64,000 nucleotides of DNA from an uncultured Alphaproteobacteria bacterium. GTDB lineage: Bacteria > Pseudomonadota > Alphaproteobacteria > HIMB59 > GCA-002718135. This document shows positions 11,601 through 62,585 of this stretch, one piece after another. Positions within the stretch are counted from its first letter, which is position 1, and every line of letters begins with the position of its first letter. Below the pieces are notes generated by a model. That model did no database searches. It was not told the origin of the DNA and saw nothing but the letters and a program-made list of their open reading frames with translations. A program made the translations under genes and the position numbers. Location of the stretch: NCBI GenBank assembly GCA_902582755.1, contig CACHSZ010000002.1, forward strand, positions 80,151 to 144,150, in the 5' to 3' direction.

Positions 11601-12448
11601 TGAAAACTTTAAGATACAGAATTGGAAATGAAGTTAAGCCAGGAATACTTGATCAAGAAGGGAATATCCGTGATGTATCATCTCTTGTCATGGATTGGGA
11701 TAATAAAAATGTAACTATTGACAAATTGAATGAAGTGAAAAAAATTGATCCTACATCTTTACCTCTAGTTGAAAACAGTGATGGATATGCACCTTGTGTT
11801 CGTAAAGAAAGTATAGGAAAATTTATTTGTATCGGCCTAAATTATTCTGATCATGCTGAAGAAACAGGCCAGAAAGTTCCACCTGAACCAATTATTTTTG
11901 CAAAAGCAACAAGTGCCGTTATTGGACCAAACGATGATGTTGAGATTCCAAAAAAATCAGTAAAATCTGACTGGGAAGTTGAGCTTGGTGTTATTATTGG
12001 AAAAGAAGCAAAATATATTTCTGAGAGCGAATCACAATCTCATATTGCTGGATACTGTGTCATCAATGATCTCAGCGAAAGAGAATTTCAAATAGAACAT
12101 TCCGGTCAATGGGTTAAAGGAAAGTCTTGTGACACATTTGGTCCAATCGGACCATATTTGGTTACTACCGATGAAGTACCAGAACCTCAAAACTTAAAAA
12201 TGTGGCTTGATGTAAATGGTAAAAGAATGCAAGATGGATCAACAAGCACAATGGTTTACGGAGTAAACTTTTTAATAAGTTATTTAAGTCAATTCATGTC
12301 ATTACAACCTGGAGATATCATCTCAACAGGCACACCGCCAGGAGTTGGAATGGGAATGAAACCACAAGTATTTTTAAAAGCAGGTGATGTAATGAAACTT
12401 GGTATTGAGGGTTTGGGAGAACAAACTCAAAAAACTATTCAGGCGTAA
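11600..12448 (+). CDS. fumarylacetoacetate hydrolase (FAH)-family hydrolase
   Basis: GLNYSDHAEE, WEVELGVIIG and GTPPGVG motifs. I prefer ATG 11600 (TAATG coupling, GGAGGA upstream) over the track start 11588. Confidence 0.85.
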   Translation: MKTLRYRIGNEVKPGILDQEGNIRDVSSLVMDWDNKNVTIDKLNEVKKIDPTSLPLVENSDGYAPCVRKESIGKFICIGLNYSDHAEETGQKVPPEPIIFAKATSAVIGPNDDVEIPKKSVKSDWEVELGVIIGKEAKYISESESQSHIAGYCVINDLSEREFQIEHSGQWVKGKSCDTFGPIGPYLVTTDEVPEPQNLKMWLDVNGKRMQDGSTSTMVYGVNFLISYLSQFMSLQPGDIISTGTPPGVGMGMKPQVFLKAGDVMKLGIEGLGEQTQKTIQA

Positions 12449-13602
12449 TGTTTGGCAATATTAATAATTGTCATAATGTTAAAGATTTTAGAAACTTAGC
12501 AAAAAAAAGACTGCCTAGTCCAATATTCCATTACATCGATGGTGCTGCTGATGATGAGATAACTTATAAAAGAAATACAGATGCCTATGAGCAATGTGAC
12601 TTGATTCCAAATGTATTAAGTGGCGTTGATAAAGTTGATATGTCAACTACTGTAATGGGACAAAAGTTAGATATGCCTTTGTATTGTGCACCAACTGCTC
12701 TTCAAAGATTGTTTCATCATGAAGGTGAAATTGGAGTTGCAAAAGCTGCAGAAAAATTTGGAACAATGTTTGGAATTTCTTCTTTAGGGACTGCTAGCAT
12801 TGAAGAAATATCAAATTTAGTCAAAACACCAAAATTATTTCAACTTTATGTTCACAAAGACAAAGGTTTGAACAAAGCTCTTATAGAAAGATGTAAAGAA
12901 TCAAATTTTGAAGCAATGGCTGTGACTGTAGATACTGCTGTTGGAGGAAACCGTGAACGAGATTTGTATACAGGTTTTACAATTCCAATGAAGTTAAAAC
13001 TTAATAGTGTCTTAAGTTTTATGCTCCACCCAAAATGGGCAGTAGATTATTTTATAAAACCAAAATGGGAATTAAGTAATCTAAAGGATCACATTAATGA
13101 AGGCACAACAGTAATGACAACCATAGGAGATTACTTCACAAAAATGCTTGATAATTCCATGAGTTGGAAAGATGTAGAAAATATTAATAAAGAGTGGGGA
13201 CGACATTTTGCAATTAAAGGGGTGATGTCCGTAGACGATGCAAAAAAAGCTGTAGATGTAGGTGCGTCAGCCATAATGGTTTCAAATCATGGAGGTCGAC
13301 AATTAGATGGCTCTAGATCACCATTTGATCAACTAGCTGAAATTGTTGATGCTGTTGGAGATAAAATAGATGTAATTTGCGAAGGAGGAATCAGAAGAGG
13401 TACTCATGTTTTAAAAGCACTGTCACTTGGTGCAAAAGCTTGTTCTGGTGGAAGAATGTATTTATATGCTTTAGCAGCAGGAGGTCAAAAAGGTGTTGAA
13501 AAAAGTTTATCTAATTTACGTAATGAAATTGAACGAGATATGAAATTAATGGGAGTTTCTAACGTAAAAGAACTAACAAGAAAAAATCTCAAATTCAGAT
13601 AA
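12448..13602 (+). CDS. FMN-dependent alpha-hydroxy acid dehydrogenase (L-lactate dehydrogenase/glycolate oxidase type)
   Basis: 384 aa with the SNHGGRQLD signature and TIM-barrel FMN_dh features. TAATG overlap with the upstream gene. Confidence 0.85.
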   Translation: MFGNINNCHNVKDFRNLAKKRLPSPIFHYIDGAADDEITYKRNTDAYEQCDLIPNVLSGVDKVDMSTTVMGQKLDMPLYCAPTALQRLFHHEGEIGVAKAAEKFGTMFGISSLGTASIEEISNLVKTPKLFQLYVHKDKGLNKALIERCKESNFEAMAVTVDTAVGGNRERDLYTGFTIPMKLKLNSVLSFMLHPKWAVDYFIKPKWELSNLKDHINEGTTVMTTIGDYFTKMLDNSMSWKDVENINKEWGRHFAIKGVMSVDDAKKAVDVGASAIMVSNHGGRQLDGSRSPFDQLAEIVDAVGDKIDVICEGGIRRGTHVLKALSLGAKACSGGRMYLYALAAGGQKGVEKSLSNLRNEIERDMKLMGVSNVKELTRKNLKFR

Positions 13603-13662
13603 ATCAACAACTTTCTTAAAAAAAATATTTATTCTAATTCAATTTTATTTTACAAATTTTTT

Positions 13663-13983
13663 ATGAATGATGAAATTGAACCAATCCTAGTTGGTGAAAC
13701 TGATGATATTGAAGTTGGAACTGTGGAGAGTTTTGAACATGACGATTTTAATTACGCGGTCTATCATTTAGAGCCAGGATTTTTTTGTACACAAGGAAAC
13801 TGTAATTGCGAGGAGAAAGCACCTTTAAGTGAATCTGAAATTGAAGGAGAAGAGTTAGAGTGTGTTGGTTGTGGTAATACTTATAGTATTGTTTCGGGTG
13901 ATTGTATTAGTGATCCTGAATTAGAGGGCCTTAAGATCTTTGACATCTCCGAAGAGGATGGAAATATTTACTTAAATATCTAA
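13663..13983 (+). CDS. acidic Cys-rich protein with Rieske-fold-like pattern (all-Cys variant)
   Basis: 106 aa. C47-N-C49-x17-C67-V-G-C70 reproduces the spacing of the Rieske CxH-x(15-17)-CxxH motif with both His replaced by Cys. The flanking pattern (LxCxxCGxxYxxxxGxxxxxP...LKxFxxxxxxGxIY) is Rieske-ferredoxin-like. Confidence 0.5.
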   Translation: MNDEIEPILVGETDDIEVGTVESFEHDDFNYAVYHLEPGFFCTQGNCNCEEKAPLSESEIEGEELECVGCGNTYSIVSGDCISDPELEGLKIFDISEEDGNIYLNI

Positions 13984-61049: not shown

Positions 61050-61895
61050 ATGGCTAATAAATCAACAACAGGGCAGAAACATCCATATCATTTAGTTGAT
61101 CCAAGCCCACTTCCATTTTTATCATCAATAGCTGGTCTTGCAATGGCTGCTGGTCTTGTATTTTATATGCATTATGGAACTTCTTGGCTCCTCATTCTAG
61201 GCACTATTGGTTTACTAACTATTATGTTTCTATGGTGGAGAGATGTAATCAAAGAGTCAACTTTTCAAAAGGTTCACACACCTGTCGTAGAACTTGGATT
61301 AAGATATGGAATGGCGCTTTTTATTGCTTCAGAAGTTATGTTCTTTGTTGCTTTTTTCTGGGCTTTTTTTGATGCAAGTTTAACACCTAAATTACCTATA
61401 GAAGAATTTTCAGAAACTTTTGATAGTAATGGTGCAGTTGGAATTTGGCCACCAGAAGGTATTAAAACCTTTGATCCACTTGATGTGCCTTTTTTAAATA
61501 CATTAATATTATTAATGTCAGGTACTACTTGTACATGGGCTCACCATGCTGTTAGAGAAGGACATAGAGATCAAGCCATTCAGGCATTATGGTGCACTGT
61601 TGGTCTTGGAATTTTCTTCTCATTTATGCAGGGTGTAGAATATTATGAGGCAGCTCATCATTATTTTAGTTTTACTGATGGAATATATCCATCAGTATTT
61701 TATATGGCTACTGGTTTTCATGGATTTCATGTAATGGTTGGAACAGCATTCTTAGCTGTTTGTTTGTATCGTGTTTACAAAAATCATTTTACCCCAGACA
61801 GACATTTCGGTTTAGAAGCAGCAGCATGGTACTGGCACTTTGTTGACGTAGTTTGGCTGTTCTTGTTTGTCTGCGTTTATGTTTGGGGTGCATAA
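61050..61895 (+). CDS. coxC: cytochrome c oxidase subunit III
   Basis: HPYHLVDPSP N-terminus, GFHGFHV, and AAWYWHFVDVVWLFLF. Confidence 0.93.
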   Translation: MANKSTTGQKHPYHLVDPSPLPFLSSIAGLAMAAGLVFYMHYGTSWLLILGTIGLLTIMFLWWRDVIKESTFQKVHTPVVELGLRYGMALFIASEVMFFVAFFWAFFDASLTPKLPIEEFSETFDSNGAVGIWPPEGIKTFDPLDVPFLNTLILLMSGTTCTWAHHAVREGHRDQAIQALWCTVGLGIFFSFMQGVEYYEAAHHYFSFTDGIYPSVFYMATGFHGFHVMVGTAFLAVCLYRVYKNHFTPDRHFGLEAAAWYWHFVDVVWLFLFVCVYVWGA

Positions 61896-62585
61896 ATTAA
61901 AAACTTTCCAGTAAAATTTTTTATATTCAGTTCATTTTGTGTTGCACTGACAATATTTTTAGGAATTTGGCAATTGCAAAGACTGGAATGGAAAGAAAAA
62001 ATTATAGCTGAATTTAATGAACTAAAAAACCAAAAACCACTGTCACTATCAATGGGAAAAATGAAGTATCCAAACATTGATGAGTTTACTAAAGTTATCA
62101 CTTTAGGAACTGTTGACAGAAGTAAAAAAATTTTTTTCCCGGCTGAAACATTGAATGGGATTTCTGGTGTTAGAATAGCCAGTTTATTGTCAGATAATCA
62201 TGGTAATAATTATTTAATTGATGAAGGTTGGTTTGAGCAAAGTAGATATGATTATTTTAAAGACAATAATGAAATAATAAATGCTGAAATTCTAGGATAC
62301 ATCCGATATCCAACTCAAAAAAAGATGTTTACTCCCGAGAATTCTATCTCTTCAAATGAATGGTATTATTATGATTTGGAGCAAATTCAAACTTTCTTAA
62401 ATGTTAAGATCAATCAGAAATTTTTTATTAGAAATATGAGCAATTATGCAGAGAATTTCTTAATACCATCATCTCAAAATCATAATTTTTCAAATAATCA
62501 TTTGCAGTATGCAATTACATGGTTTTTGATGAGTTTTTCTTTTTTGATTATTTTTATAATTTATTTATTTAGGAAGAAAAAATGA
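61896..62585 (+). CDS. surf1: SURF1-family cytochrome oxidase assembly protein (start codon unresolved)
   Basis: LGIWQLQRLEWK box, C-terminal NNHLQYAITWF plus a TM helix. The conserved N-terminal helix lies upstream of the track start (TTG 61974). The 5' boundary is given as the first sense codon after the coxC stop. Confidence 0.8.
   Translation: MKNFPVKFFIFSSFCVALTIFLGIWQLQRLEWKEKIIAEFNELKNQKPLSLSMGKMKYPNIDEFTKVITLGTVDRSKKIFFPAETLNGISGVRIASLLSDNHGNNYLIDEGWFEQSRYDYFKDNNEIINAEILGYIRYPTQKKMFTPENSISSNEWYYYDLEQIQTFLNVKINQKFFIRNMSNYAENFLIPSSQNHNFSNNHLQYAITWFLMSFSFLIIFIIYLFRKKK

Follow-up and report, generated by a model that had tools for sequence, protein, structure and literature searches.

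The surf1 gene of SAR11 most likely begins at a rare ATT codon that abuts the stop codon of coxC

The surf1 gene of SAR11 most likely begins at a rare ATT codon that directly adjoins the stop of coxC, the gene ahead of it. In the window analysed here (the whole 64,000-nt stretch of alphaproteobacterial DNA) the genes are ordered coxA-ctaB-ctaG-coxC-surf1, and the coxC-surf1 junction reads GTT TGG GGT GCA TAA (61893-95) ATT (61896-98) AAA AAC TTT CCA GTA AAA. As an earlier note on this DNA had stated, the coxC TAA is followed, in the same frame, by surf1 sequence that contains no ATG, GTG or TTG until position 61974. The features concerned are:

61050..61895, forward strand: coxC, with TAA as its stop; the product is cytochrome c oxidase subunit III (281 aa)
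61885..61890, forward strand: GGGGTG, a Shine-Dalgarno-like G-run formed by TGG GGT G at the end of coxC and separated from the ATT by 5 nt
61893..61895, forward strand: coxC stop codon TAA, directly abutting ATT 61896
61896..61898, forward strand: ATT, where surf1 is proposed to start (as AUU), from comparative evidence
61896..62585, forward strand: full-length surf1 coding sequence, 229 codons plus TGA, from the Pfam SURF1 match and AlphaFold2
61905..61970, forward strand: TM1, residues 4-25, FPVKFFIFSSFCVALTIFLGIW, a Kyte-Doolittle hydropathy peak
61959..61994, forward strand: LGxWQxxRxxWK box, residues 22-33
61974..61976, forward strand: TTG used as start by gene callers, an internal Leu27 codon within the invariant box
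62502..62570, forward strand: TM2, about residues 203-225, from hydropathy and the modelled helix 202-228

The surf1 frame, which is that of coxC, stays open from ATT 61896 to the stop codon TGA at 62583-85. According to the list of open reading frames its first ATG, GTG or TTG is TTG 61974, from which the product is 203 aa long, and a separate scan found none before W25. The start-less 5′ stretch of 26 codons is the longest of any real gene in the window, as judged from every stop-to-stop frame with 100 codons or more. Apart from surf1, the ten window genes whose start-less stretches are longest gave no evidence of non-canonical starts; their Pfam domains all begin after the first canonical start, so that the start-less stretches of these genes are not needed.

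The ATT-started product matches the Pfam SURF1 family (PF02104) with E = 2e-31 and 110.4 bits, against a cut-off of 23.4 bits, the match covering residues 14-213 of the protein and positions 2-204 of the 205 in the profile. Because the match starts at profile position 2, the part that precedes TTG 61974 is SURF1 by homology too. AlphaFold2 modelled this protein with a mean pLDDT of 90.4 and a pTM of 0.79, as a helix (residues 4-45), a beta-rich middle part and a second helix (residues 202-228); TM1 was modelled within the first helix, with pLDDT 95-96 at residues 11-30, and the hydropathy peaks lie at residues 3-28 and 203-227. A sequence search found no solved SURF1 structures and a fold search returned only Tetrahymena complex IV chains, the best of these solved-structure matches having a TM-score of 0.63. 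In the box that follows TM1, which is thought to sit beside the heme a site, the columns L22, G23, W25, Q26, L27, R29, L30 and K33 are invariant among 43 SURF1 sequences, and TM2 is preceded by an NNHLQYAITWF motif with the conserved His202, the invariant columns before TM2 being N201, H202, Q204, Y205, T208, W209 and F210. Moreover, diversity at the three codon positions is 0.173/0.135/0.300 in TM1 versus 0.177/0.107/0.288 in the rest of surf1. This comparison of codon positions shows the TM1 codons to behave as translated sequence under purifying selection, evolving like the remainder of surf1, and together with the Pfam homology from residue 14 it bears out the previous claim that TM1 is real coding sequence. 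Members of the SURF1 family have one TM helix on either side of a large extracytoplasmic domain (PMC9145763), a layout that the window SURF1 attains only with a translation start at or near 61896. Its family membership and gene order suggest a role in heme a binding and in the maturation of oxidase subunit I.

The gene callers all choose an internal start (P0001 to P0037; PGAP entry MDC2978219.1, 212 aa), and TTG is a legitimate start codon. It could therefore be argued that translation begins at TTG 61974, CTG 61947 or ATA 61923, leaving TM1 truncated or absent, or else that the gene is decaying. However, none of these codons is conserved: TTG is found in 52 of 91 relatives (the others having TTA, CTT, CTA, ATA, CTC or TTC), CTG in 56/91 as a merely variable Leu codon, and ATA in 4/91. 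Across the relatives, the earliest canonical start varies in position between 15 codons ahead of W25 and 151 codons past it. That is, in the sequences compared, canonical start codons at surf1 are scattered, without conservation. Furthermore, the 26 codons upstream of the TTG share the purifying-selection pattern of the rest of surf1, a start at TTG 61974 would cut the LGxWQxxR box, which is invariant, as well as the modelled helix of residues 4-45, and the surf1 frame is intact at 93 of 94 loci, which argues against decay. An internal start or a decaying gene is thus quite unlikely. TTG 61974 can be dismissed as the true start, as had been maintained before, and the ATA and CTG codons, which had also been put forward as possible initiators, lose their appeal as well.

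The codon at 61896 was followed through 94 type-A junctions, 62 of them unique, taken from single-cell genomes and metagenomes of SAR11 generated in many projects, and through 91 distinct surf1 genes with a minimum pairwise protein identity of 44%. In all 94 junctions the coxC stop codon is directly followed by ATT, with both genes in one frame and a single stop between them, and codon 1 is ATT in every one of the 91 genes; codons 2 and 3 vary. By comparison, nine other conserved Ile columns each use all of ATT, ATA and ATC, and only three of the 47 fully conserved degenerate columns in the 91 genes have an invariant codon. ATG, a single T-to-G change away, occurs at codon 1 in none of the 91. 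Judged from this alignment, ATT is fixed at the nucleotide level beyond what the amino acid needs, across a deep clade, and ATT 61896 stands as the likeliest start, in line with the first of the possibilities raised previously; another constraint at the nucleotide level, e.g. the context of coxC termination, could in principle underlie the invariance. With the ATT start the W of the WQLQR box is residue 25, versus residues 23-26 in canonically started alphaproteobacterial SURF1 proteins. The suggestion that ATT is a sequencing or assembly error, the true codon being ATG or a base being missing nearby, has nothing in its favour but prior plausibility for one genome. The identical ATT recurs in single-cell assemblies and metagenome contigs, 94 independent ones in all, and a base-call error is excluded by about 90 independent assemblies.

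The earlier note had also asked whether the two genes always share a frame. They do so in the 94 type-A junctions but not in type-B relatives, where surf1 is in the +1 frame relative to coxC, nor in a lineage with a 1-nt insertion. In this last sub-lineage (three samples) surf1 is read from an ATG inside coxC and the N-terminal helix is kept, which shows TM1 to be required and places the start at the coxC-surf1 junction. The in-frame arrangement is paraphyletic to the canonical-start lineages, the A1+A2 clade being recovered in 3/100 bootstraps.

The single stop between two genes in one frame, found at 94/94 type-A junctions, would suit an occasional readthrough of the coxC TAA, yielding a CoxIII-SURF1 fusion that supplies the SURF1 function. 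Yet the stop is TAA, the least leaky stop codon, in 61 of the 62 unique junctions (TAG in the other one). The coxC product matches the COX3 family of Pfam with E = 5.7e-98 over positions 1-257 of the 258 in the profile, and its alignments with COX3 chains of known structure span the whole length, for example residues 2-261 of the 261 in bovine 1v54_C; it has seven hydrophobic segments, and its C-terminus is the end of the last one. In COX3 structures the C-terminus is on the periplasmic or intermembrane-space side. TM1 of SURF1, for its part, must run from the cytoplasm to the periplasm (topology from PMC9145763), so that a fusion would invert SURF1. Moreover, the COX3 and SURF1 domains are combined in none of the best 120 homologues, and the different frames of coxC and surf1 in the type-B and 1-nt-insertion lineages imply that SURF1 works as a separate protein. 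Fixation of ATT would not be expected for an Ile in an internal linker either. Readthrough, proposed previously as one of the ways to express TM1, is therefore highly improbable.

A further alternative, absent from the earlier note, is a programmed −1 frameshift, in which translation would begin in the +1 frame, at ATG 61879 or GTG 61888 where that frame overlaps the last part of coxC, and would slip back by one base on the A-run (UUA AAA AC, 61897-61904) to give MFGVHKLKNFPV.... The frame in question is:

61879..61914, forward strand: short +1-frame ORF, ATG TTT GGG GTG CAT AAA TTA AAA ACT TTC CAG TAA (MFGVHKLKTFQ*)

Its product corresponds to the N-termini of the type-B relatives (...FGVHKN...), and the distance from ATG to AAC is 23 nt, versus 24 nt in the ATG-started lineage, so that a −1 shift would restore the register. 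The in-phase AAAA is preceded, at a distance of 8 nt, by a G-rich SD-like element, an arrangement loosely like that of dnaX, and an in-phase homopolymer occurs in 48 of 63 unique junctions. Like −1 frameshifting in dnaX and IS elements, the junction thus combines a G-rich SD-like element ahead of an A-run with two overlapping frames, but unlike them it has no canonical heptamer, no clade-wide slip site and no stimulatory structure. That is, the window itself contains no canonical heptamer, and the 20/63 unique junctions that do have one differ in its sequence and position; in 9/63 both an XXXYYYZ heptamer and an in-phase NNNN run are missing, and no slip site common to the clade emerged from the in-phase heptamers and homopolymers of all unique junctions. 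Stimulatory RNA structure at the junction was not significant (z = +0.79 for 61866-61935 and z = −1.19 for 61899-61998). Furthermore, the +1-frame ORF ends two codons past the coxC stop at L047, L048 and L092, the ATG and GTG sites are both missing in 4/62 unique junctions, and a frameshift would leave the strict invariance of ATT unexplained. With no conserved slip site and with its ATG and GTG unconserved, a −1 frameshift from the +1 frame was rejected as very unlikely.

We therefore favour initiation at the AUU itself: surf1 probably starts at AUU 61896-98 as a separate cistron, coupled to coxC termination and aided by the SD-like run. The initiator tRNA would decode this AUU as fMet, giving a 229-aa SURF1 (MKNFPVKFF...) made up of a short Lys-containing cytoplasmic N-terminus, TM1, the periplasmic domain and TM2. 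Since the AUU abuts the coxC stop (UAA AUU) and GGGGNG lies 5 nt upstream, initiation would probably combine SD-guided de novo initiation with re-initiation by ribosomes that have only just finished coxC. TGGGG is invariant in the 62 unique junctions, with T, C or A as the sixth base, and GGGGNG is found 5 nt upstream throughout; a core SD is present in 15 of 61 genes of the window. As the Trp-Gly codons of coxC demand the G-run, selection for a role as SD cannot be told from coding constraint here, and the motif was dropped as independent support for the ATT start. Juxtaposed stop-start pairs are strongly SD dependent, the infC AUU lying 3 nt past the thrS stop (PMC3592434). AUU, which starts infC and pcnB in E. 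coli, initiates at 1-2% of the level of AUG, i.e. poorly (10.1101/063800), and such a weak start would hold the amount of SURF1 well below that of CoxIII. The use of this AUU, its coupling to coxC and the low expression are what we infer from the junction and its relatives. More tentatively, UAA-AUU may be a selected device by which SURF1 is made almost only through re-initiation after coxC, at a low, fixed SURF1:CoxIII ratio that is possibly sensitive to IF3, and which has been kept since before the major SAR11 subclades split; we regard this extended version as possible but doubtful.

The surf1 AUU is best explained as a new case, deeply conserved, of a rare type of start known from infC, pcnB and Borrelia pncA. 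The closest parallel is E. coli infC, encoding IF3, which likewise has a conserved AUU right after the stop of the upstream operon gene (thrS; UAA GGU AUU), and for both weak starts a combination of de novo initiation and re-initiation is assumed (PMC3592434). The gap between stop and AUU is 3 nt in infC and 0 nt in surf1, however, and the infC start is experimentally proven whereas the surf1 AUU is proposed from sequence comparison. Moreover, it is through its AUU that infC senses IF3 for autoregulation; for SURF1, an oxidase assembly factor, no comparable logic is apparent. E. coli pcnB also has an AUU start, which holds its expression low, but in other phyla this start alternates between AUG, GUG and UUG (10.1101/063800), in contrast with the ATT of surf1, which is invariant in every sampled in-frame relative. 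In Borrelia burgdorferi, pncA (BBE22) starts with AUU and its database entries are truncated, the listed protein being without a required N-terminal part (PMC13398362); that start was validated in a single species, through genetic and biochemical work and a crystal structure, while the surf1 case is built on comparison spanning an order-level clade. Paracoccus denitrificans Surf1c and the canonical alphaproteobacterial SURF1 proteins share with the window SURF1 the family, the two-TM architecture, the linkage to cox II/III and the conserved boxes, but those genes (P0094 to P0120) start with ATG.

All database versions of this SURF1 that were found, the PGAP entry included, are N-terminally truncated, with 177-213 aa instead of 229. 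The clusters with truncated SURF1 hold more than 1,300 member sequences, and in a collection of 15 billion proteins none of five exact ATT-started sequences was present, the calls there being truncated only. Most likely owing to a rare ATT start directly after the coxC stop, the automatic annotations checked all lose the first membrane helix. A search of the literature for Pelagibacter SURF1 or non-canonical starts found nothing relevant. SAR11 bacteria, which rank with the most abundant organisms of the ocean, depend for aerobic respiration on the aa3-type oxidase, in whose assembly SURF1 assists. The truncated entries lose TM1 and part of the box, and so mislead analyses of topology, structure and pangenomes. 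If surf1 does start at this codon, the very short list of deeply conserved AUU starts would gain one outside the translation machinery, and the junction may offer a natural system for asking why a streamlined genome maintains a weak start abutting a stop.

In the window, the end of coxC (cytochrome c oxidase subunit III) and the open frame of surf1 (a cytochrome oxidase assembly factor) abut as ...TAT GTT TGG GGT GCA TAA (61893-95) ATT (61896) AAA AAC TTT CCA GTA AAA TTT TTT ATA TTC, and all elements of the earlier note's sequence description were found in place.

61050-61895: coxC, complete subunit III gene (Pfam COX3, E = 5.7e-98, profile positions 1-257 of 258)

TAA 61893-95 represents the native CoxIII end, because the protein matches solved COX3 chains from one end to the other, e.g. 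bovine 1v54_C (residues 2-261 of 261), R. sphaeroides 1m56_C and P. denitrificans 1qle_C. The surf1 frame is open from ATT 61896 through to TGA 62583-85, and mechanical ORF finding places its first ATG, GTG or TTG at TTG 61974. Since the Pfam SURF1 match (E = 2e-31) starts at profile position 2 and takes in residues 14-213 of the product read from ATT, the 26 codons 5′ of TTG 61974 are homologous SURF1 sequence. The surf1 stop overlaps the next gene's start as a classic ATGA (62582-62585; ATG 62582-84, TGA 62583-85). Relatives L062-L070 carry a Peptidase_M32 carboxypeptidase gene next to surf1, and relatives L059 and L061 carry threonine synthase there instead, so that synteny past surf1 differs within SAR11.

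The window organism belongs to SAR11 (Pelagibacteraceae). A one-genome-per-species scan recovered 57 loci from marine single-cell genomes (73-97% identity), mostly close relatives; a metagenome scan and look-ups of individual database proteins added further SAR11 lineages down to ~50% identity, the deeper ones resting on metagenome contigs. In 94 loci, with 62 unique junction sequences between them, coxC and surf1 share a frame, and alignment of the junctions showed ATT directly 3′ of the coxC stop in all 94, with no exception. This contradicts a sequencing error and rules out the miscalled ATG that had been considered. In one single-cell genome (GCA_902630475.1; L064:1137-1200), surf1 opens TAA ATT ATT AAA as usual and a run of 9 T within the first membrane helix (TM1) shifts the frame by one base, which reflects either misassembly of the homopolymer or a genuine disruption in this cell. 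In another (L049:1501-1590), a 9-nt tandem duplication (TTTAGTTTA twice) within TM1 adds three residues (SLF), putting the W 27 codons from ATT instead of 24, with frame and ATT both retained. In several non-SAR11 marine relatives (~30% identity; L109, L118, L125, L126, L131, L134 and L139), surf1 likewise has an open frame that begins right behind the coxC stop and matches the coxC frame; the junction lies ~30-40 codons 5′ of the WQL box, and an ordinary ATG follows 2-3 codons later (e.g. TAA CCA CTA ATG AAA). In-frame abutment of coxC and surf1 is therefore common, and the SAR11 oddity is the start codon only.

Constraint on this codon was assessed in a codon alignment of 91 distinct complete surf1 genes (pairwise protein identity: minimum 44%, median 75%). 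Codon 1 is ATT in 91/91, while codons 2 and 3 take seven and nine forms, respectively. Each of the nine other columns with Ile conserved at >=90% uses all three Ile codons, the commonest making up ~43-89% per column, which argues that codon 1 is constrained as a nucleotide triplet and not as isoleucine. A fully conserved degenerate amino acid occurs in 47 columns; the codon is invariant in only three of these, and the two besides codon 1 are two-fold degenerate (AAT, TAT). Such invariance fits a start codon, and neither a readthrough linker residue nor an ordinary internal codon. Moreover, ATT has become ATG in none of the 91 genes, though one substitution would be enough, suggesting that the weak start is being preserved and not just tolerated.

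The canonical start codons, on the other hand, are not conserved: the position of the first ATG, GTG or TTG ranges, depending on the relative, between 15 codons upstream and 151 codons downstream of the Trp at residue 25. The TTG 61974 site is TTG in only 52/91 genes and lies within the invariant LGxWQxxRxxWK box, supporting the earlier note's view that it is not the true start. The two internal sites it had offered fare no better, ATA 61923 being ATA in 4/91 and CTG 61947 a variable Leu codon. Gene callers use whichever canonical codon a strain has, giving products of 177, 203, 208, 212, 213 or 217 aa; the short versions include PGAP entry MDC2978219.1 (212 aa) as well as a cluster with 1,349 members, and no ATT-started sequence is present in a collection of 15 billion proteins. 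The 90%-identity cluster of P0001, a truncated SURF1 call, also lists unrelated 437-aa MnmE-like proteins (P0122, P0125, P0127) annotated as 'tRNA modification GTPase', which appears to be a database clustering artefact.

The ATT-started SURF1 has 229 aa and two hydrophobic segments (residues 3-28 and 203-227). An AlphaFold2 model built on 43 homologues (mean pLDDT 90.4, pTM 0.79; residues 11-30, 95-96) comprises a beta-rich central domain flanked by helices at 4-45 and 202-228. Its best solved-structure matches are Tetrahymena complex IV chains (TM-score 0.63 over full length), given without chain names; this complex retains SURF1 as a subunit. The layout agrees with that of published Surf1, whose large extracytoplasmic domain has a TM segment at either end and whose residues for heme a binding lie close to the TM junctions (PMC9145763). 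Counted from ATT, the box Trp is residue 25, compared with 23-26 in ATG-started alphaproteobacterial SURF1, and a start at TTG 61974 (residue 27) would split both box and modelled helix. Nucleotide diversity by codon position is 0.173/0.135/0.300 in the TM1 region and 0.177/0.107/0.288 in the remainder of surf1; this equal third-position excess indicates that TM1 is translated, as coding sequence under purifying selection. Window surf1 is an ordinary family member in every feature tested, and only its start is unusual. A truncated protein or pseudogene is contradicted by the selection on TM1 together with the unconserved canonical starts.

Readthrough of the coxC TAA, giving a CoxIII-SURF1 fusion, had also been proposed. 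The stop is TAA in 61 of the 62 unique in-frame junctions (TAG in one), TAA being the tightest of the stop codons. The last of the seven hydrophobic segments in CoxIII runs to the C-terminus; this terminus lies on the periplasmic/IMS side in solved oxidases, so that a fused SURF1 TM1 would insert backwards. Furthermore, no COX3-SURF1 fusion occurs among the 120 best homologues, and a linker residue would not predict an invariant ATT triplet.

In another SAR11 group (P0038 to P0072; loci L062, L069), surf1 lies in the +1 frame and overlaps the coxC end, so the two genes do not always share a frame. The equivalent site has GTG or ATG (GGG GTG CAT AAA AAC...), yielding N-termini M(H/R)K(N/K)... 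A sub-lineage of the window's own group carries a 1-nt insertion just past ATT (TAA ATT TTC AAA C TTT CCT), shared by three metagenome contigs that are independent of one another and stem from different samples:

L058:124-200, 1-nt insertion lineage
L151:1201-1290, 1-nt insertion lineage
L152:1201-1290, 1-nt insertion lineage

Here surf1 is in the +1 frame with a canonical ATG within coxC, a 17-nt overlap and the product MFGADKFSNFPIKFF..., which retains the same N-terminal helix. Both cases show that SURF1 is a protein of its own, that it requires TM1 and that the junction is the proper place for its start.

The +1 frame also bears on an explanation that the earlier note did not consider, i.e. 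translation starting in a +1-frame ORF at the coxC end and slipping by -1 on an A-run into the SURF1 frame. The window contains such an ORF:

ATG 61879 ... GTG 61888 CAT AAA TTA AAA ACT TTC CAG TAA, short +1-frame ORF

It corresponds to the start region of the +1-frame group, and slipping back one base on the A-run would bring translation into the SURF1 register. However, the window junction has no X XXY YYZ heptamer, 9/63 unique junctions are without any in-phase slip-prone run, the +1-frame ORF ends two codons past the coxC stop in three junctions, both ATG and GTG are missing in 4/62 unique junctions, and there is no significant RNA structure downstream (z = +0.79 and -1.19).

A neighbour-joining (distance) tree of the SURF1 mature region (~240 columns, 100 bootstrap replicates) separated three groups that all reached 100% bootstrap support: A1 (the window's group), A2 (in-frame, ~50% identity) and B (+1-frame).

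Support for groupings in the SURF1 tree
A2 + B: 69 of 100 bootstrap replicates
A1 + B: 28 of 100 bootstrap replicates
A1 + A2: 3 of 100 bootstrap replicates

As A1 and A2 so rarely group together, the stop-ATT arrangement is tentatively paraphyletic. It would then probably be ancestral to the sampled SAR11 lineages, canonical starts having been regained by frame changes.

The comparative evidence, an invariant ATT where other Ile columns vary, makes decoding of AUU 61896-98 by the initiator tRNA the most likely mechanism; a start at this codon was the first option of the earlier note. The run GGGG(U/C/A)G at 61885-90 could pair with the anti-SD with a spacer of 5 nt, or 7 nt from the GGAGG-equivalent core; this motif is dictated by the coxC Trp-Gly codons, from which selection as an SD is not separable. 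In window ORFs of at least 150 codons, GGAG/GAGG/AGGA occurs 4-18 nt upstream of the first canonical start in only 15/61, and GGGG in 0/61. Because the genome makes so little use of SD motifs, the G-run before ATT stands out, though coxC-forced. AUU output in E. coli reporters is 1-2% of AUG (10.1101/063800). In another system it falls 6-8-fold below AUG; there, directly juxtaposed stop-start pairs were unusually SD-dependent and, at short gaps, re-initiating ribosomes gave about half of second-cistron initiation (PMC3592434). By analogy, surf1 may start by a mix of SD-guided and termination-coupled initiation, with little SURF1 made per CoxIII.

This genome does not generally resort to non-canonical starts: none is needed in the ten window genes with the next-longest start-less 5′ stretches, whose domains all begin after a canonical start. 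A Rieske-domain ORF (13603-13983) follows the stop of an FMN-dependent dehydrogenase gene (12409-13602) immediately and in the same frame, its first 20 codons lacking a canonical start; it needs no unusual start, because the Pfam domain begins at residue 28, after an ATG at codon 21.

Confirmed AUU starts are few, e.g. infC and pcnB in E. coli (10.1101/063800), and a literature search found no paper mentioning one in SAR11 or SURF1. Borrelia pncA has an AUU start and, like SAR11 surf1, truncated database entries (PMC13398362). In infC, AUU follows thrS as UAA GGU AUU (PMC3592434), whereas the stop-start gap in SAR11 surf1 is zero nucleotides. The putative SAR11 surf1 start is notable for this zero-nucleotide junction and for its depth of conservation, and a low SURF1 yield would plausibly suit an assembly factor.
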